A stretch of DNA of 32,000 nt, from positions 990,001 through 1,022,000 of the forward strand of contig FP565575.1 in NCBI GenBank assembly GCA_000091165.1, in the 5' to 3' direction. The position numbers and the translations under genes were made by a program. Origin of the DNA: Candidatus Methylomirabilis oxygeniifera (GTDB lineage: Bacteria > Methylomirabilota > Methylomirabilia > Methylomirabilales > Methylomirabilaceae). The notes beneath the pieces are model-generated. The model did not search any database. It saw only the letters and a program-made list of their open reading frames with translations, and was not told the origin of the DNA. Positions 4,287 through 13,817 of this stretch are shown in pieces. Numbering within the stretch: position 1 is the first letter of the stretch; each line of letters opens with the position of its first letter.

Positions 4287-5048
4287 ATGGGCAACTTACA
4301 GGCTTCTATAGGGTCCGCTCGATTGTTATTGTTGGGAATTATCAAGCGAGCTTGGTCTTGGCTACTTCTCGCATTTGTGACCTTTCCAGGCGCGTATGAC
4401 CGATACAAATGGATTTTTCCGCACGATATGCAGGTAGCGTCAATGCCATTGTGGGTGTCTCTCGGATTGTTGGGAATTGGGCTGATTTACGCAATGTTCA
4501 TGACCTACCATGAATTGAATATGCAGGCAAAAACCATGCAACACCAACTTGATCCGACCCTTGATATTCTGTGTGGCAACGATCCTCCGCTTGAGGAGCG
4601 AGAAATCTTAGCGGGCAGTCAAGATGTGCAATGGCGTTATTTTCGTATTGGCATAAAGAATATAGGAAGCACAACAGTCGAGGATGTTGTCGTCCGTTTA
4701 GAGGAGTTATATGACTTAGCATCCGACCCTCCCGCAAAGAGCCCAGTTCCTCCCGTGATATTGAGACAGATGAATGATAATCCATTCAATGGACAATATC
4801 AGCAAAGTTTCAGATTGCACCCCGGACAGATTCAGTACATTGACGTTGCGTGGAAGCCAGAGGCTGCTGTGACGATTGACCCCGATCAAATTAGACTGGG
4901 GTATGCTCAAATGTCACCTTCCTTAATTTCATGCCGACGCCATGAACTCTTAATACAGGCCGCTGGCAGAAACGTTCCAGCAAAAAGTCGGTGGTTTTTT
5001 GTAGATGTGAATCAAGATGGGCAACTTATATTCGGGCCTAAGAATTAG
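4287..5048 (+). CDS. Orphan membrane protein (two predicted TM helices plus a ~170-aa soluble domain of unknown family); IS cargo
   Basis: 253-aa ORF. Hydrophobic segments are ARLLLLGIIKRAWSWLLLAFVTF and MPLWVSLGLLGIGLIYAMFMTY. The C-terminal part looks beta-rich (WRYFRIGIKNIGSTTVEDVVVRLEEL...QIQYIDVAW...RWFFVDVNQDGQLIF). I recognise no motif. Spot counts of 60-nt rows give ~42-47% G+C, against ~60% in the adjacent transposase gene. Confidence 0.6.
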   Translation: MGNLQASIGSARLLLLGIIKRAWSWLLLAFVTFPGAYDRYKWIFPHDMQVASMPLWVSLGLLGIGLIYAMFMTYHELNMQAKTMQHQLDPTLDILCGNDPPLEEREILAGSQDVQWRYFRIGIKNIGSTTVEDVVVRLEELYDLASDPPAKSPVPPVILRQMNDNPFNGQYQQSFRLHPGQIQYIDVAWKPEAAVTIDPDQIRLGYAQMSPSLISCRRHELLIQAAGRNVPAKSRWFFVDVNQDGQLIFGPKN

Positions 5049-6281: not shown

Positions 6282-6407
6282 CTATGTGGTCGCGGAGACC
6301 GATTCGCCGGGTTAGCGATAGACGGCGTATTTACGTATATGGCATCGAATAGTTGGAATCTCAGCAAATCCGAGTTGCGTCAATTGTCCCAGGTAAAGGA
6401 GGACACC

Positions 6408-9400
6408 ATGCTTGGCAAGGCGAGCGGGTCAACGTTCCACGGAATAGAAAAGGGAGTAGAGGCGACCCAGGCGGAAGGATCCAGACCGACGAAGAATGGA
6501 CAGTGGAGTGAATCAGCCATCCGCGTCCTCAAAGAGCGTTACCTGATAAGGGACGCGACAGGTGTCAAGGAGACGCCGGAGGAGATGTGCTGGCGGGTCG
6601 CGGTGGCCATCGCCAAGGCTGAAGGGCAGTGGGGTAGAAGTGAGGCGGAAGCTCTCCAGGTTGCGGAGTCGTTTTACGATGTCATGGTTGACGGGAAGTT
6701 CCTTCCTAACTCTCCCACGATGATGAATGCCGGCAAAGAGAACGGGATGCAGTATTCGGCCTGTTTTGTGCTTCCCGTTGAGGATTCTATGGAGGGGATC
6801 TTTGAGGCGGTCAAAAGGGCGGCGATCATCCATCAGTCCGGCGGCGGGACCGGCTTTGCGTTCTCGCGCCTCAGGCCGAAGGATACCCTGGTGAAGTCAA
6901 CGGGCGGTAAGGCGAGCGGTCCCATCAGCTTCCTTCGGGTCTTTAATGCCGCCACCGAAGCCGTCAAGCAAGGGGGTGCCAGGCGAGGCGCCAACATGGG
7001 GATTCTCAAGGTGGATCACCCTGACATCCTGGAGTTCATCGACTGTAAGCTGGACGGCGGGATCACCAACTTCAATATCTCGGTGGCTACCACCGACACG
7101 TTCATGGACGCGCTGGCGAAGGACGAGACCTACGAATTGATCGATCCGCACACCAAGCTCGTCACCCGCCATCTTCCGGCTCGCGAGGTCTTTCAACGGA
7201 TGGTCCAGGCGGCCTGGCGGACCGGTGATCCGGGAATGATCTTCATCGATCGCATCAACGCGAGCCCGTCCAATCCGATTCCCCAGGATGAGCTGATCGA
7301 GGCCACGAACCCCTGCGTGCCTGGGGATACGTGGATTATGACCGATGTCGGTCCACGCCAAGTCCGGGATCTTCTTGGTAAGCCGTTTCGCGCTATCGTG
7401 GATGGGACCGGACATGCGAGCGGACTCGATGGCTTTTTCAAAACTGGCACACGCCCCTTGGTACGCCTTCGGACCGTTGAGGGCTATTCGTTGCGTCTCA
7501 CGGCGGACCACCGGGTCCGGAGGGTGACTAGGCTGACCCGCTATGCGTCTGTGACGGAGTGGACAGAAGCTGGGCAACTCCGCCCTGGCGATCGAGTGCT
7601 CCTCCATGATCACCGGGAGCTGACCGGATGGGGGGGAGCCTATACAGAAGGCGAGGGGTATCTCGTTGGTCTGTTAGTCGGGGACGGTACTCTGAAGAGC
7701 GACAAGGCGGTCCTCTCGGTGTGGTGTCCGGAAGTCGTCGCTGTCGCAAACGGACCGTCCGAGATTGGTGAGTCAGGAACCTGGGCCGTGATGCAGACTG
7801 CATGGAAGTACGCAGAATCTCTTCCTCATCGGTCGGATTTCAGGGGGTGGCTGCCCGTTCCGGGCCGGACCGAATTTCGTCTGTCGCTGGCCTATCTAAA
7901 GAAACTCGCAGGCGAAATGGGAATGGCGCCTGGACGGAAGGACATTACGCCTATAATGGAGCAGGCCTCTTCAGCATTCTATCAGGGATTCCTTCGAGGT
8001 CTGTTTGATGCCGATGGATCCGTCCAGGGATCGCAGAAAAAGGGAGTCAGTATCCGCTTGTCCCAAAGTGACCGAGAACGGTTGCTGGCCACCCAGCGCA
8101 TGTTGTTGCGCCTGGGCATCGTTTCCACGCTGTATGAGGGCCGCCGTCCGTCACAGGTTCGCCTGCTCCCCGACCAGCGAGGAGGCCAGCGAGGGTACGC
8201 CACGGCCGAACAGCACGAGCTTGTCATCTCGGGAGATAATCTCCTGCGCTTTGCCGAGCGTGTTGGCTTTTCTGACAGTGACAAGGCCCTCAGACTGCGG
8301 GCGTTGTGCTCAGCTTACAGGCGAACGGTGAACCGGGAGCGATTCACAGCCCGAGTGGTTTCTGTTACAGACGCGGGGACAGAAGATGTTTATGATGTGC
8401 AGGTCCCTGGGATTCATGCCTTCGATGCTAATGGCCTTTACGCCCATAATTGCGGTGAACAGCCGCTTGGACCCAATGACGCCTGCAATCTGGGCTCGAT
8501 CAATCTGGCGAGATTTTATCTTCCCTCGATTCCGGCGGATGCCAGGGTGACGGAGCGAATCGATTGGGTTGGCCTGGAGCAGGTGGTGCGGACGGCAGTC
8601 CGCTTCCTGGACGACGTGATCGACGTGAACCCCTATCCGCTCCAGGACATTACCGAGGAGGTTCGAAACAACCGGCGGATCGGCCTCGGGGTTATGGGCT
8701 GGGCCGATCTGCTGCTTGAGCTTGGCGTTCCCTACGACAGCGACGAGGCGGTGACGCTGGGTAATGAGATCATGGGATTCATTCGGCGAATCGGCCATGA
8801 CGCTTCCGAGAAGCTGGCAGAGGCGCGAGGGCCGTTTCCGCGTTGGTCGCGGAGCATTTACAAGGGCGGGAAACCGATTCGTAATTCCACCGTTACGACG
8901 ATTGCGCCCACCGGGACGATCAGCATCATTGTGGGTTGCTCTTCCGGGATCGAGCCGATCTTCGCCGTCGCGTTCAGCCACATCGTAGGAGACCGGCATC
9001 TGACCTTCGTGAATCCGATCTTCGAGGAGGTGGCGAAGCGGCGCGGCTTCTACAGCGAAGAGCTGATGCGGCGGGTGGCCGAGCGGGGGACGGTTCGCGG
9101 GCTTGAAGGCGTGCCGGAAGACGTTCAACGGGTCTTCGTCACGGCCCACGAGATCGAGCCTGCCCGGCACGTTAAAATGCAGGCAGCCTTCCAGAAGCAG
9201 ACCGATAATGGCGTCTCCAAGACGATCAATCTGCCGAACTCGGCGACGCCGGAGGATATCGCGAAGGCCTATATGATGGCATATGAGCTTGGATGTCTCG
9301 GGATCACGGTATTTCGCGATGGCTGTAAGGGCACCCAGGTCTTGCATCTCGGCACCGGCGCCAAGCCTGCCTTGAGCAACGTCGAGGAGCCCGCGCCGAG

Positions 9401-9998
9401 CTTGGCCGAAGAGCCTGCCGTAGGCGATGCCGAAGTGTCGGCAAGGCAGGGGGCGCCGCAAGCGATCCCAATCGTTTTGAAGACAGGCCTGGAGGCCGCG
9501 CTCAAGGTCAAGCCGAGGCCGCGGACCATGAAGGGCGTCACGTATAGGGCGGAGACGCCGCTTGGCACTGCCTTCGTTACCGTCAACCAGAATGGCGAAG
9601 GGGAGCCGTTTGAGGTCTTCGCCAGCGTCGGGAAGGCTGGGAGCGATACCTCTGCGGTGTCCGAGGCGATCGGTCGACTCATCTCGATGGTCCTCAGGCT
9701 GCCGTCACCAATGTCGCCCAGGGAGCGGGTCGGGCAGATCGTGAACCAACTGTCCGGCATCGGCGGCCGGCGACAGATGGGGTTCGGCAAGGATCGGGTC
9801 CGATCGCTGCCGGATGCTATCGCCCAGGTCCTGGCCGAGCATATCGGCCTCACCGAGCCCGGCGTTCAAGAGATGCAGGCAGCTCTTGGCAAGACGACCC
9901 AGAAAGCAGGCGACATGTGCCCCGACTGTGGCTCGGCAACCCTCGTCTACGAAGAGGGCTGTCAAAAGTGCTACTCCTGCGGGTTTAGTGAATGCTAG
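6408..9998 (+). CDS. nrdJ: Class II (adenosylcobalamin-dependent) ribonucleotide reductase NrdJ, intein-containing precursor, with TSCPD-like domain and C-terminal zinc finger
   Basis: Recognisable segments are VLKERYL..., PNSPTMMNAG, ACFVLPVEDSMEGIF, SGGGTGFAFSRLRP, GPISFLRVFN and RRGANMGIL. EATNP|C...HN|CGEQPL is the split catalytic motif. Further on come TTIAPTGTISII, VSKTINLP, a TSCPD-like block (GTAFVTVN..GEPFEVFASVGKAGSDTSAVSEAIGRLISMVLR) and the terminal CPDCGS...CQKCYSCGFSEC. AAGGAGG lies 7 nt before the ATG at 6408; the track start at 6339 has no RBS. Confidence 0.9.
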   Translation: MLGKASGSTFHGIEKGVEATQAEGSRPTKNGQWSESAIRVLKERYLIRDATGVKETPEEMCWRVAVAIAKAEGQWGRSEAEALQVAESFYDVMVDGKFLPNSPTMMNAGKENGMQYSACFVLPVEDSMEGIFEAVKRAAIIHQSGGGTGFAFSRLRPKDTLVKSTGGKASGPISFLRVFNAATEAVKQGGARRGANMGILKVDHPDILEFIDCKLDGGITNFNISVATTDTFMDALAKDETYELIDPHTKLVTRHLPAREVFQRMVQAAWRTGDPGMIFIDRINASPSNPIPQDELIEATNPCVPGDTWIMTDVGPRQVRDLLGKPFRAIVDGTGHASGLDGFFKTGTRPLVRLRTVEGYSLRLTADHRVRRVTRLTRYASVTEWTEAGQLRPGDRVLLHDHRELTGWGGAYTEGEGYLVGLLVGDGTLKSDKAVLSVWCPEVVAVANGPSEIGESGTWAVMQTAWKYAESLPHRSDFRGWLPVPGRTEFRLSLAYLKKLAGEMGMAPGRKDITPIMEQASSAFYQGFLRGLFDADGSVQGSQKKGVSIRLSQSDRERLLATQRMLLRLGIVSTLYEGRRPSQVRLLPDQRGGQRGYATAEQHELVISGDNLLRFAERVGFSDSDKALRLRALCSAYRRTVNRERFTARVVSVTDAGTEDVYDVQVPGIHAFDANGLYAHNCGEQPLGPNDACNLGSINLARFYLPSIPADARVTERIDWVGLEQVVRTAVRFLDDVIDVNPYPLQDITEEVRNNRRIGLGVMGWADLLLELGVPYDSDEAVTLGNEIMGFIRRIGHDASEKLAEARGPFPRWSRSIYKGGKPIRNSTVTTIAPTGTISIIVGCSSGIEPIFAVAFSHIVGDRHLTFVNPIFEEVAKRRGFYSEELMRRVAERGTVRGLEGVPEDVQRVFVTAHEIEPARHVKMQAAFQKQTDNGVSKTINLPNSATPEDIAKAYMMAYELGCLGITVFRDGCKGTQVLHLGTGAKPALSNVEEPAPSLAEEPAVGDAEVSARQGAPQAIPIVLKTGLEAALKVKPRPRTMKGVTYRAETPLGTAFVTVNQNGEGEPFEVFASVGKAGSDTSAVSEAIGRLISMVLRLPSPMSPRERVGQIVNQLSGIGGRRQMGFGKDRVRSLPDAIAQVLAEHIGLTEPGVQEMQAALGKTTQKAGDMCPDCGSATLVYEEGCQKCYSCGFSEC
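7314..8450 (+). mobile_element. 379-aa intein with LAGLIDADG homing-endonuclease domain, inserted before the catalytic Cys of nrdJ
   Basis: The intein starts with Cys (CVPGDTWIMTDVG, block A). Block B TxxH is present (LRLTADHRV). Two LAGLIDADG motifs are present (YLVGLLVGDGTL and FLRGLFDADGSV). Blocks F/G read VYDVQVPGIHAFDANGLYAHN, followed by the +1 Cys of CGEQPL. Removing 7314-8450 restores ATNPCGEQPL in frame. Confidence 0.9.
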
Positions 9999-11939: not shown

Positions 11940-12066
11940 AAGGCGTGTATCTGCGTTCTCTCTCTCGCTGCAGTAACCGTTGAGGGCGCACCGATCACCG
12001 TCAACAGTCGTAATCCTTGCCGTTTCAGTTCACACAAAAAATATTTATTTTTTTATACGATTTGTG

Positions 12067-12106
12067 TTGACAAGGAAAGAACGGTTGTTGTAAATATATC
12101 AACAAC
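12067..12106 (+). promoter_or_regulatory. Sigma-70-like promoter with an overlapping palindromic operator candidate
   Basis: TTGACA (12067-12072), an 18-nt spacer, then TAAATA (12091-12096). The inverted repeat GTTGTTG (12084-12090) / CAACAAC (12100-12106) brackets the -10. A third GTTGTTG overlaps the start codon region (12125-12131). An A6/T7-rich tract lies upstream (12046-12064). Confidence 0.5.
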
Positions 12107-12123: not shown

Positions 12124-12696
12124 GTGTTGTTGATCCGGCTATTTTCGTCAGAAGTACGTGTAAGTCTTCTTACCCTTTTTTTTACTAGGTTGGATAAGCG
12201 CTTTTATGTCAGAGAGTTGGCGCGACACCTTGGGCGGGATATTTCCGGGATCAAGCGAGAGTTGGATAACCTGGAGAGAGTCGGTTTGTTGGTGAGTGAA
12301 AAGGTTGGAAATCTTCGGTACTACCGGGCAAATAAGGCGTCACCCCTTTACACTGAGATGAAGGGAGTGATCGCAAAGACGACCGGTATCCATGCCAGTC
12401 TTCGAGAAGGGCTCAGAAAGATCAAAGGAATCCAGAGGGCCATGGTATATGGCACAGAGCAGCAGGAAGGCGACGAGAGCCTCGGCCCTGTTCGGTTAAT
12501 GGTGATCGGCCAGCTCGACCTGAACGAGCTGAACGAAGCAATAAGGGTGTTGGAAAGCCGCTTGAATCGTGAGATTAACTACCTGGTGTTTGATGAAGTC
12601 GAATATCAACGGAGAAAGGCAGAGGATGACCCGTTCCTGGCAGAAGTGCTTAAGGGTCGAAAGTCAATCCTGATCGGAACGGACGATGGCCTATGA
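12124..12696 (+). CDS. Winged-HTH (ArsR-like) fused to a nucleotidyltransferase-like (MNT-type) domain
   Basis: LFSSEVRVSLLTLFF....FYVRELARHLGRDISGIKRELDNLERVGLLVSEKVGNLRYYRANK is a wHTH. It is followed by IQRAMVYGTEQQEGDESLGPVRLMVIG, the position of the GS..(D/E)xD NTase motif in related wHTH-NTase proteins. The exact start is ambiguous (GTG 12124, TTG 12127 or TTG 12130); GAGGTG lies at 12117-12122. Confidence 0.6.
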   Translation: MLLIRLFSSEVRVSLLTLFFTRLDKRFYVRELARHLGRDISGIKRELDNLERVGLLVSEKVGNLRYYRANKASPLYTEMKGVIAKTTGIHASLREGLRKIKGIQRAMVYGTEQQEGDESLGPVRLMVIGQLDLNELNEAIRVLESRLNREINYLVFDEVEYQRRKAEDDPFLAEVLKGRKSILIGTDDGL

Positions 12697-13135
12697 GGAA
12701 CTTCGAGAACGGGGACTGGTTGAGGAAATTCGGCCTGACTTCCGCCAGGTTTCGTTGTTGCTTGCGCGCGCGTCGAAAGATTTAGCGACCGCCGGGGCCA
12801 ACTTAAGTATTGATAAAGCGTGGGCATATATCATCGCCTATCAAGCGATGTTAAGAGCGGCGAAGGCATTGGTGATGGCGGAAGGATGGCGCGTAAAAGG
12901 TCGTGATCAGGCGAGAACATTCGTCATATTGATAGGAGAGATTTTAGGTGAAGAGGGGCGCGCGCTTGTCAACGGCTTCGATCGCATGCGTCGTAAACGG
13001 CAGGACTTAATGGAGGAGCCGCAAACGCCGATCCCTCGGTATGAGGTGGAGGGAGCGCTCAAAGATGCACAAGCCTTAATTGAAAAGCTCGTAGAGCTTG
13101 CGCGTGAGAAAAATCCGCAGTTGGCGTTGTTGTAA
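12686..13135 (+). CDS. HEPN-like four-helix protein, partner of the upstream NTase-like gene
   Basis: 149 aa, overlapping the upstream gene by 11 nt. The pattern LLARASKDLATAGANLSID.AWAYIIAYQAMLRAAKALVMAEGWR......FDRMRRKRQDLME resembles HEPN proteins that pair with MNT genes, whose family motif I recall as FDRMRRKRN...Y. Confidence 0.5.
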   Translation: MAYEELRERGLVEEIRPDFRQVSLLLARASKDLATAGANLSIDKAWAYIIAYQAMLRAAKALVMAEGWRVKGRDQARTFVILIGEILGEEGRALVNGFDRMRRKRQDLMEEPQTPIPRYEVEGALKDAQALIEKLVELAREKNPQLALL

Positions 13136-13182
13136 CGTGACCGACTGGAAAGCCACGACATAGAAAGGGGGTGAGAACCTCA

Positions 13183-13272
13183 ATGGCAGCAGCGAAGAAG
13201 CCGGCAGCGAAGAAGGCGGCGCCAAAGAAGGCGGCGCCGAAAGCGGGAAAGAAGACGGGAAGAGGATGCTAG
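13183..13272 (+). CDS. Micro-ORF 1: 29-aa Lys/Ala-rich peptide MAAAKKPAAKKAAPKKAAPKAGKKTGRGC
   Basis: My own translation. It is preceded by AGAAAGGGGGTGAGAACCTCA, in which GGGGGTGA is one mismatch from the extended SD GGAGGTGA, 7 nt before the ATG. Internally it has a 15-nt (5-codon) periodicity at 13192-13251. Confidence 0.4.
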   Translation: MAAAKKPAAKKAAPKKAAPKAGKKTGRGC

Positions 13273-13324
13273 CCTCGATCAGCGGTGAGAGAGGCCTTCA
13301 CGAAGAAAGGGGGTGAGCACCTCA

Positions 13325-13381
13325 ATGGCAGCGGCAAAGAAAAAGGCGGCAACGAAGAAGACGGCGACCAAGAAGAAGTAG
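13325..13381 (+). CDS. Micro-ORF 2: 18-aa Lys/Ala/Thr-rich peptide MAAAKKKAATKKTATKKK
   Basis: My own translation. The leader AGAAAGGGGGTGAGCACCTCAATGGCAGC is identical to that of micro-ORF 1 except for one base. Both are followed by a similar AGCCTCGAT(C/G)AG segment. Confidence 0.4.
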   Translation: MAAAKKKAATKKTATKKK

Positions 13382-13478
13382 GAACGCTGTATGGCCTTGG
13401 TAACCGAGTGAGCCTCGATGAGTTGAGTATCGGAAAACGTTATTCGGTTACCTTGACGGTGGAAAGAGGCCACCCGCT

Positions 13479-13503
13479 GCTGGGGGGGGTATCCCCCCCC
13501 AGC
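13479..13503. other. Perfect 11-bp G/C hairpin GCTGGGGGGGG-tat-CCCCCCCCAGC
   Basis: Read directly: G8 at 13482-13489 and C8 at 13493-13500. No U-tract follows on either strand, so it is not a canonical intrinsic terminator. Confidence 0.6.
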
Positions 13504-13817
13504 CGGTATCATAATCACTTTATAATCATAATTCTTAACTGTAAGTTGCGGGTAACAGTGTAGTACGACGCCAGCAACCGCTCAAAACGTCGTAATCGAG
13601 TGGGGGTCTGTGTCAAGATACCCGGAGACAGGCATGATGAGTTCATAAAAGAAGGCTTAGAGTTTTCATCAATCGCCGTTCTTTCTTCTGTCCTCAACGC
13701 GAGCTTCGCAGCGCCCCACGCAAAGAAGGCAGACGCTCGCCAATCCCTCCGTGCATGTTGTTTCAGCCATCCGCTTCTCTTTACATCATCTCCGCTTTAT
13801 GCTATAGGAAAGTAGGA

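Follow-up and report, generated by a model that had tools for sequence, protein, structure and literature searches.

Conserved lysine/alanine-rich micro-ORFs behind a degenerate HEPN/MNT-type gene pair in Candidatus Methylomirabilis oxygeniifera, and a candidate class of similar micropeptides in other lineages

The window described here is the whole of a 32,000-nucleotide (nt) stretch of Candidatus Methylomirabilis oxygeniifera DNA (contig FP565575.1, positions 990,001 to 1,022,000). Within it, two tandem micro-ORFs (very short open reading frames, ORFs), ORF1 and ORF2, encode predicted lysine/alanine-rich peptides of 29 and 18 amino acids (aa) at the end of a gene block that begins with a winged helix-turn-helix (wHTH) protein carrying a minimal-nucleotidyltransferase (MNT) fold and continues with a HEPN protein. 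Judging from their conservation, both ORFs are very probably real coding genes that belong to this module. The best overall reading, which we regard as probable, is that they give rise to polycationic micropeptides at high levels, alongside a domesticated regulator of toxin–antitoxin (TA) origin with which they are co-expressed. A role of the peptides as polycations that bind nucleic acid is read from their composition only, and we hold it with somewhat less than even confidence. Similar ORFs appear to make up a broad, unannotated class of 11–60 aa, with members in Methylomirabilota, Nitrospirota and Patescibacteria, in high-GC lineages and in at least one DPANN archaeon. A more speculative proposal is that oligo-Lys/Ala micropeptides are widespread, highly expressed and overlooked in Bacteria and some DPANN Archaea, that they serve, akin to protamines or polyamines, as encoded counter-ions of the nucleoid, RNA or ribosomes, and that in Methylomirabilota and Nitrospirota they were captured by a decayed HEPN/MNT regulator.

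Comparison with relatives carries the case for coding. Ten NC10 loci were obtained from a genome scan with an LptC alignment, and more from look-ups of HEPN and wHTH homologs. The gene order in the window is ribonucleotide reductase (with an intein), Fic, dcd, wHTH-MNT, HEPN, ORF1, ORF2, a hairpin and lptC-lptA-lptB-rpoN-hpf-rapZ. Over this region the sequence agrees without a difference with GCA_009026205.1 and with contigs assembled from run SRR023516, a Methylomirabilis oxyfera enrichment, and LptC homologs bear the name Candidatus Methylomirabilis or NC10. The central block of promoter, wHTH protein (186–190 aa), HEPN protein (149 aa), K/A-rich micro-ORFs and a GCUGGGGG...CCCCCAGC hairpin with an A/T-rich tail recurs in every NC10-type locus that has enough sequence upstream of the probe, which amounts to 11 distinct lineages (the window, L007, L008, L009, L010/L013, L012, L015, L016/L017, L019, L073 and L197-199). 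Ten of these have two micro-ORFs and the last has one. Each is preceded by the Shine–Dalgarno (SD) sequence GGRGGTGA, and SD, start, frame and stop of both ORFs are kept even where LptC is only 53–56% identical. The peptides range from the 13-aa MAAKKKAKKAKKK up to the 29-aa ORF1 of the window, with ORF1 orthologs of 13–29 and ORF2 orthologs of 14–23 aa. A first-pass annotation of this DNA, made from the sequence alone, had proposed to look in relatives for a conserved SD, ATG and frame and for length changes in multiples of 3 or 15. SD, start and frame are indeed conserved and, apart from a frameshift in L019, the indels are in frame (18, 3 and 3 nt in ORF1; a 15-nt insertion in ORF2 of L009); the ATG itself is not, as ATG, GTG and TTG interchange across lineages behind a constant SD. 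Both differences between ORF2 of the window and that of L007 are synonymous third-position changes.

The flanks of the block change while the block stays constant. Upstream lie dcd, divergent TAtT/DctP genes, a DUF554 gene or an HD-domain gene; downstream lie lptC, either directly or after about 2 kb of other DNA, an Aldedh gene or an acyl-CoA dehydrogenase gene. The four genes and the hairpin thus behave as one unit, and the micro-ORFs are tied to the gene pair and not to lptC. The suggestion that the micro-ORFs are the third and fourth genes of the cassette is borne out to the extent that they travel with the pair in every sufficiently covered NC10-type relative. The pair is also better conserved than LptC, with identities of 82–89% for HEPN and 75–88% for the wHTH protein compared with 53–93% for LptC in the loci from the LptC scan; in more distant members of the NC10-type clade HEPN is 60–65% identical. 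In one of these lineages (L073, oriented, 8240-8481) the two micro-ORF units are exact 122-nt duplicates that include about 60 nt of leader. Set against the window, where near-identical leaders precede differing peptides, this suggests gene conversion or repeated re-duplication.

A second line of evidence comes from a pattern search in JGI metagenome contigs for GGTGA-N4-9-DTG-GCN-RCN-AAR-AAR-AAR-SC, i.e. an SD followed by M-A-(A/T)-K-K-K-(A/P). Among approximately 125 matches listed, 103 ORFs (in loci within L023-L142) constitute the poly-K class; all class counts given here refer to the matches listed and are lower bounds. These ORFs are 11–60 aa long (median 20), remain K/A-rich through to the stop codon, consist of 56% K, 26% A and 6% T with some P and G, and end in KKK in 70 of 103 cases. 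In a control with the same pattern on viral contigs, 39 of 46 matches were the N-termini of ordinary proteins, so the short, K/A-rich outcome is not imposed by the search pattern. Across loci spanning 32–71% GC, the GC content of third codon positions (GC3) follows that of the locus (Spearman 0.84, slope 1.5), and that of first and second positions does not (rho 0.02 and 0.17). This drift confined to GC3 is a coding signature, and the strongest evidence for selection on the amino-acid sequence. Within the 120 nt that follow the ORF, 52 of 94 class loci have a hairpin with a T-tract behind it, compared with 8 of 94 in the upstream control; this terminator starts at a median of 31 nt past the stop codon.

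Other lineages also have tandem sets of two or three micro-ORFs that lack a HEPN gene (L034, L063, L068 and L078). Neighbouring genes identify Candidatus Falkowbacteria, of the Candidate Phyla Radiation (CPR), as one host. The peptide MAAKKKAKKRR (L047; GC 0.32, SD GAGGTGA) is encoded about 1.2 kb away from pelota. An exact-sequence match of this pelota gene leads to the DPANN archaeon GW2011_AR17, so the class may extend to Archaea. Ten class peptides of 29–60 aa, including those of 48 and 60 aa, had no exact counterpart in a collection of 15 billion proteins, Pfam and NCBIfam gave no match to three of the peptides at E up to 10, and no description of poly-Lys micro-ORFs or of a link to HEPN/MNT was found in the full-text literature searched, a limited set. 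The neighbours that recur around class members (ABC-2 ATPase, PrmC, SecA, SerRS, LpxC and PPOX-like genes) were considered as a shared functional theme and set aside, as they look like lineage synteny; neither a lysine biosynthesis or transport gene nor a ribosomal gene cluster is among them. In an unrelated high-GC lineage (L095, L096, L039 and L100), ribonucleotide reductase genes stand about 420 nt upstream of poly-K micro-ORFs, and the window itself has a ribonucleotide reductase gene of 1219 aa at 6339-9998, with an intein that carries a LAGLIDADG homing-endonuclease domain; this proximity is possibly a coincidence. The stop codons of the class are 74 TAA, 29 TAG and no TGA, at GC contents of up to 71%, where TGA is usually the commonest stop. 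The absence of TGA could reflect high expression or the context after Lys codons.

The two genes upstream of the micro-ORFs have the folds of a HEPN/MNT pair and seemingly none of its chemistry. They are adjacent and co-oriented with an 11-nt overlap, a pairing that is kept in all NC10 relatives. Pfam and NCBIfam return wHTH matches only for the first protein (ArsR-type, in its N-terminal half), and a PDB sequence search gave weak ArsR matches for it and nothing significant for HEPN. The AlphaFold2 (AF2) model of the wHTH-MNT protein (pLDDT 82) is more informative: Foldseek aligns its N-terminal domain with ArsR/SmtB repressors and about 100 residues of its C-terminal domain with the MntA structures 6m6u_F, 7bxo, 7aer_A and 8xeo at probability 1.0. 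In place of the MNT catalytic motif GS-x(n)-DxD, which reads YGS...SDIDL in canonical relatives, the window has YGT...GPVRL, and other homologs linked to micro-ORFs have SIN, NIN or similar where DxD should be. In HEPN, the canonical RRKR(N/H)xxxY has become RRKRQDLME (FDRMRRKRQDLMEE), with Q and E for N/H and Y, and neither the RNase motif (R-x4-6-H) nor the Tyr that MNT modifies is present. Both partners therefore look catalytically dead, and since the HEPN/MNT fold is there but the catalytic residues are not, the pair is not filed as an active TA system. The earlier description of an NTase/HEPN pair accordingly stands as to fold (Foldseek, Pfam) but not as an active toxin and antitoxin (DxD, N/H and Y lost). 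The wHTH-MNT fusion belongs to a large family, with 4,580 representatives at 50% identity for E <= 1e-3 and 1,751 for E <= 1e-10. DxD is kept in 133 of the best 150 representatives, and the three closest to the window are without it. Within the NC10-type clade, including L073, the wHTH-MNT protein is 57–96% identical; HEPN homologs form a tight clade, nearly all of 149–150 aa and 60–91% identical, beyond which identity falls to 45% or less.

The association of regulator and micro-ORF extends beyond this clade. At four loci of 39–45% GC (L050, L060, L120 and L129), whose wHTH and LpxC proteins were assigned to Nitrospirota/Thermodesulfovibrionia by exact-sequence look-ups, a wHTH-MNT-like gene of 181–198 aa (36–39% identical, degenerate DxD) ends 45–49 nt before a single micro-ORF such as MAAKKKAAAKKKTAKKKKK, with the same GAAAGGGGGTGA leader and a canonical intrinsic terminator behind it, and no HEPN gene. 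HEPN thus appears dispensable for the association, as these Nitrospirota have only the wHTH-MNT-like gene and the micro-ORF. In GenBank metagenome-assembled genomes (cluster members at least 90% identical), the wHTH protein and the product of the convergent lpxC gene have consecutive accession numbers, which suggests that the stretch between the two genes is free of annotated genes and that the annotation passes over the micro-ORF there. A further locus, L110, combines wHTH and HEPN genes (50% and 42% identity) with two micro-ORFs. The SD of module-linked micro-ORFs is mostly GGGGGTGA within GAAAGGGGGTGA (window, L050, L060, L120, L129, L110, L194 and L197); the rest of the poly-K class commonly uses the canonical GGAGGTGA. 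This choice implies that the extended leader is conserved across phyla beyond what pairing with the anti-SD needs. Lipopolysaccharide (LPS) genes adjoin the module in both phyla, as NC10 loci lie upstream of lptC-lptA-lptB (window 13818 onward) and Nitrospirota L050, L120 and L129 are convergent with lpxC; the neighbour differs in other NC10 lineages, and the adjacency may have been inherited from an ancestor or be due to chance.

Loss of catalysis and presence of a micro-ORF tend to go together. Three homologs with a degenerate motif (P0393, P0400 and P0421) were chosen by protein similarity alone: the first has HEPN, one micro-ORF (MATKRKAAKKKASKKKAAPKKKK) and a G/C hairpin, and the second has GGGGGTGA-N6-ATGGCAGCAA, the start of a micro-ORF at the contig end. 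Five canonical pairs that bear DxD (L020, L021/22, L143/144, L145 and L146/147) have no micro-ORF. There is thus one exception to the rule, P0421, in a correlation drawn from few, phylogenetically clustered lineages, six positives of which were found via the micro-ORF itself.

The layout of the module in the window is collected in Table 1. The first-pass annotation had described two units about 142 bp apart with near-identical strong-SD leaders, and both are there: GAAAGGGGGTGAG(A/C)ACCTCAATGGCAGC (28/29 nt) occurs at 13163-13190 and 13305-13332, 142 nt apart, and nowhere else in the window or in 100 dinucleotide-preserving shuffles; up to 3 mismatches were tolerated in both searches. Both ORFs, their Lys/Ala translations of 29 and 18 aa and the 15-nt (5-aa) periodicity of ORF1, of the AKKPA/AKKAA type (repeat families D1–D3), were likewise verified, as was the absence of a terminator-like site between the HEPN stop (13135) and ORF1 and the presence of a very stable hairpin downstream of both units. 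The SD lies 7 nt before the ATG, as had been stated, if it is taken as GGGGGTGAG, and 8 nt before it if taken as GGGGGTGA. The similar segment reported after both units, AGCCTCGAT(C/G)AG (repeated AGCCTCGATSAG, family D7), is found at 13271-13282 and 13411-13422; only the first copy, which overlaps the ORF1 stop codon, is kept in relatives. In the four sequences of the genus Methylomirabilis (window 13255-13272, L007, L008 and L009), the ORF1 peptide has the C-terminus G(R/K)GC, whose Cys is invariant, and this Cys might serve dimerisation, metal binding or modification. ORF2 of Methylomirabilis and the peptides of all other lineages end in KKK. An exact-sequence look-up of a GTG-extended ORF1 of 33 aa found no record.

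Table 1. Features of the module, in coordinates of the window.
Feature	Position	Strand	Description
Operon promoter region	12030-12106	+	A/T-rich UP-like tract, -35, -10-like element and palindrome; putative function
-35 element	12067-12072	+	TTGACA (perfect)
Palindrome over -10	12084-12090 / 12100-12106	+	GTTGTTG / CAACAAC; putative operator of the wHTH protein
-10-like element	12091-12096	+	TAAATA; 18-nt spacer from -35
wHTH-MNT gene	12124-12696	+	190 aa; ArsR-type wHTH and MNT fold
HEPN gene	12686-13135	+	149 aa; Pfam PF05168, E = 1.6e-7
SD of micro-ORF 1	13167-13174	+	GGGGGTGA; as GGRGGTGA in all relatives
Micro-ORF 1	13183-13272	+	ATG 13183, TAG 13270-13272; 29 aa, MAAAKKPAAKKAAPKKAAPKAGKKTGRGC
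Inter-ORF stem-loop	13272-13295	+	GCCUC...GAGGC; begins at last base of ORF1 stop codon
SD of micro-ORF 2	13309-13316	+	GGGGGTGA
Micro-ORF 2	13325-13381	+	ATG 13325, TAG 13379-13381; 18 aa, MAAAKKKAATKKTATKKK
3' UTR hairpin	13399-13452	+	GGUAACCGA...UCGGUUACC
3' UTR hairpin	13458-13474	+	GGUGG...CCACC
Terminal G-run/C-run hairpin	13479-13503	+	GCTGGGGGGGG-TAT-CCCCCCCCAGC; 11-bp stem, UAU loop, A/T-rich tail

Two competing ORFs overlap this region and were rejected: a minus-strand gene-caller ORF of 77 aa (13279-13518, antisense to ORF2 and the 3' untranslated region, UTR) is not conserved in relatives, and a 92-aa ORF in another plus-strand frame keeps neither frame, extent nor sequence among them. 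Both are regarded as by-products of the stop-poor AAG/GCG repeats, and the 77-aa gene call is almost certainly spurious. The promoter layout with its palindrome is common to all NC10 lineages; in L010 the palindrome is altered to match on both arms (GTCGTTG/CAACGAT), and TTGACA with TATAAAT is also found at the Nitrospirota loci. A consensus promoter scanner, whose -10 rule demands T at position 6, did not list 12030-12106, and no promoter-like element was detected between HEPN and ORF1. The sequence GTTGTTGTAA at 13121-13130, in the 3' end of the HEPN gene, was tried as a half-operator and dismissed as a coincidence, because it is not kept in relatives.

Taken together, these features suggest how the module probably works. 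One strong promoter of the sigma-70 type would drive the genes for the wHTH-pseudoMNT protein, the pseudo-HEPN protein and the two peptides, with the transcript stopping at the G/C hairpin. The wHTH and pseudo-MNT protein would be a likely autorepressor, acting via the palindrome over the -10 element. This regulator and the pseudo-HEPN protein would descend from a HEPN/MNT TA pair whose catalytic residues were lost, and a tandem duplication would have produced two micro-genes, each with its own very strong SD, the second copy raising dosage or diversifying the product. The peptides, Lys/Ala polycations predicted to be intrinsically disordered or helix-prone, could then be abundant and neutralise nucleic acid in the nucleoid, in RNA or in the ribosome, much like a free histone-H1 tail.

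Several observations weigh against this reading of the module. We infer the translation of both micro-ORFs from the DNA, and the same holds for co-transcription and for autoregulation by the wHTH protein. In one relative (L019, ORF1 at 4490-4545) an extra G after ATGGCTACG shifts the K-rich frame by +1; the same contig splits Aldedh and LptC as well, so the frameshift is probably an assembly error. Variable sites are not enriched at third positions (9/5/4 in ORF1 and 5/3/2 in ORF2) in an alignment of four species that has few such sites and ignores codons. In this within-genus alignment, conservation is at about the same level in the ORFs and in the intergenic parts, which argues for some constraint at the RNA level in addition, and the in-frame indels could stem from slippage in the 3- and 15-nt repeats without any coding selection. 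The degenerate homolog P0421 has no micro-ORF. The idea that the pair acts as an acidic chaperone for the peptides was discarded, as the two proteins have pI values of 6.4–9.9 and are not acidic. Finally, a wHTH homolog is nearby in only 7 of 103 class loci, one of which (L094) offers a weak partial match about 2 kb away (24% identity over 115 aa); the proposed co-occurrence with wHTH-NTase/HEPN pairs thus holds in the NC10-type lineages and breaks down in the wider class. Since most poly-K micro-ORFs do not stand beside the regulator, their functional tie to it may be one of co-expression only.

The same layout can be read in terms of toxicity. The peptides would then be the toxic or effector arm of a TA-like module that stayed under tight autorepression by the wHTH-pseudoMNT protein, with or without the pseudo-HEPN protein, once the HEPN/MNT enzymes had decayed, and would do harm at high dose by binding nucleic acid or ribosomes or by poly-lysine stalling during their own synthesis. 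A strong promoter whose -10 element is covered by a palindrome, followed by the regulator gene and, at the end, by a small effector, is the classic layout of type II TA systems; the module descends from the HEPN/MNT TA family, and in Nitrospirota the HEPN slot is empty with the micro-ORF directly after the regulator. However, the module is vertically inherited, single-copy per locus and syntenic across the phylum, with proteins conserved above the level of LptC, in which it differs from mobile TA cassettes, and poly-K micro-ORFs elsewhere mostly have a strong SD and a terminator but no adjacent regulator, which argues against intrinsic toxicity. We regard both the effector role and this mode of harm as unlikely.

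Another explanation to which we assign little probability is that the ORFs act in cis, as a leader, attenuator or arrest peptide would. Termination or stability of the transcript, or expression further downstream, would then be governed by the nascent poly-lysine or by translation of the Lys codons, in analogy to poly-Cys attenuators, and the free peptide would have no role. Runs of Lys codons behind very strong SDs fit such a device, a small hairpin between the first SD and ACCUC (13177-13181), part of the minimum-free-energy fold, could occlude this SD, the 3' region is structured with a sequence-conserved hairpin after the ORFs, and the GC3 signature is equally expected if the translated sequence alone matters. 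Yet it is the 3' end of the operon, not a 5' leader, that holds the ORFs, and the genes past the hairpin differ by lineage (lptC, Aldedh, acyl-CoA dehydrogenase or convergent lpxC). No lysine biosynthesis or transport gene recurs nearby, and the short distance from stop codon to terminator at the 52 class loci leaves no room for alternative structures. The Lys-codon leader peptide that the first-pass annotation had offered as an alternative is thus disfavoured, given a hairpin or terminator that follows the ORFs and downstream genes that vary. The terminal hairpin is found after the last micro-ORF in all NC10-type lineages and is likely to be the 3' end of the operon transcript; of nine consensus pairs in its stem, seven are essentially invariant and two covary, so that it is conserved mostly in sequence. 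It was rejected as an example of a generic terminator type, as this G8/C8 hairpin is the sole G-run/C-run hairpin in the 32-kb window.

Structure in the RNA bears on an improbable third alternative, in which the ORFs are incidental to a non-coding element of RNA or DNA, for instance a repeat rich in purines or a small RNA processed from the 3' end of the operon. The transcript from 13136 to 13520 folds more stably than shuffled sequences (z = -4.7), several stems are kept, and the intergenic stretches match the ORFs in conservation within the genus. In the inter-ORF stem-loop the arms are invariant and the loop variable in four Methylomirabilis species, which in the absence of covariation is weak evidence; in L007 and L008, G-U and compensatory changes preserve the arms of the two 3' UTR hairpins (13399-13474). 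This two-hairpin element is specific to the genus, however, and absent in L016, L019 and L073: in relatives outside Methylomirabilis neither the 3' UTR structures nor the nucleotide sequence is preserved, but the SD, start, K/A-rich frame and stop are kept, and drift of GC3 alone over 32–71% GC is hard to explain without translation. No Rfam family matches either, as Rfam 15 gave no match on the window at the gathering score and only chance-level matches on the locus (E >= 0.27), on the terminal hairpin. Almost no credence is due to the view that the ORFs arose by chance in a low-complexity repeat or are what remains of a longer, decaying gene of the histone-H1 type: the composition recalls the tails of H1, HupB and AlgP and the repeats are prone to slippage, but SD, start and stop are separate for each unit and conserved across Methylomirabilota and Nitrospirota, none of the relatives preserves a longer reading frame, and a leader absent from shuffles is not due to chance, all of which disfavours the histone-tail relic raised earlier.

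If genuine micropeptide genes are indeed what the module contains, and if the peptides are made, free poly-lysine would be a new kind of abundant small gene product in bacterial cell biology. It would bear on how nucleic acids are neutralised and compacted in small-genome, uncultivated lineages (CPR, DPANN, NC10 and Nitrospirota), on the fate of TA modules after their enzymes have decayed, here seemingly through domestication into a dedicated regulator, and on the incompleteness of small-protein catalogues. Reasons why such products would have been missed include the length cut-offs of gene callers, low-complexity filters and the digestion with trypsin that precedes mass spectrometry; trypsin would destroy such Lys-rich peptides.

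Among known systems, the closest to the gene pair is the HEPN/MNT (HepT/MntA) type VII TA system, with which it shares the overlapping arrangement of MNT followed by HEPN, the predicted MntA-like fold and the PF05168 domain; a palindrome in the promoter is in addition a trait of autoregulated TA operons. Unlike HepT/MntA, the pair in the window is without the DxD of MNT and the N/H and Y of HEPN, has an ArsR-type wHTH fused to the N-terminus of the MNT protein, is vertically conserved and syntenic across the phylum rather than mobile, and is accompanied by one or two poly-Lys micro-genes that are absent from the five canonical relatives. The micro-ORFs themselves resemble amino-acid-sensing leaders or attenuators, such as the poly-Cys short ORFs of mycobacteria and the classical Trp, His and Leu leaders, in being short, dominated by the codons of one amino acid and furnished with a good ribosome-binding site. 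They differ from these in that they follow two full-length genes at the end of a transcript, with terminators behind them and variable, non-lysine genes further downstream.

The peptides can be compared with two groups of basic proteins. The tiny basic ribosomal proteins eL41, bTHX, bL37 and bS22 are approximately 20–35 aa long, Arg-rich, and have aromatic residues and specific conserved sequences; size range and extreme basicity are shared with the micropeptides, which unlike them are almost pure Lys/Ala and conserved in composition only. The strong SDs and exclusive use of TAA and TAG stops in the class suggest high expression. H1-like Lys/Ala/Pro-repeat domains are known from chlamydial Hc1/Hc2, the tail of mycobacterial HupB, Pseudomonas AlgP and the C-terminus of PhaF, where they form tails or domains of proteins of 100–350 aa. 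The likeness lies in the Lys/Ala/Pro composition, in the pentapeptide-like AKKPA/AKKAA periodicity of ORF1 and in the nucleic-acid binding that would be expected by analogy; the difference is that the whole product of the class is 11–60 aa long (median 20), with no folded domain and no family match. Overall, the peptides resemble H1-like tails in composition but are free-standing, and there is a substantial chance that the wider class, as gene-encoded oligolysines, is something new.

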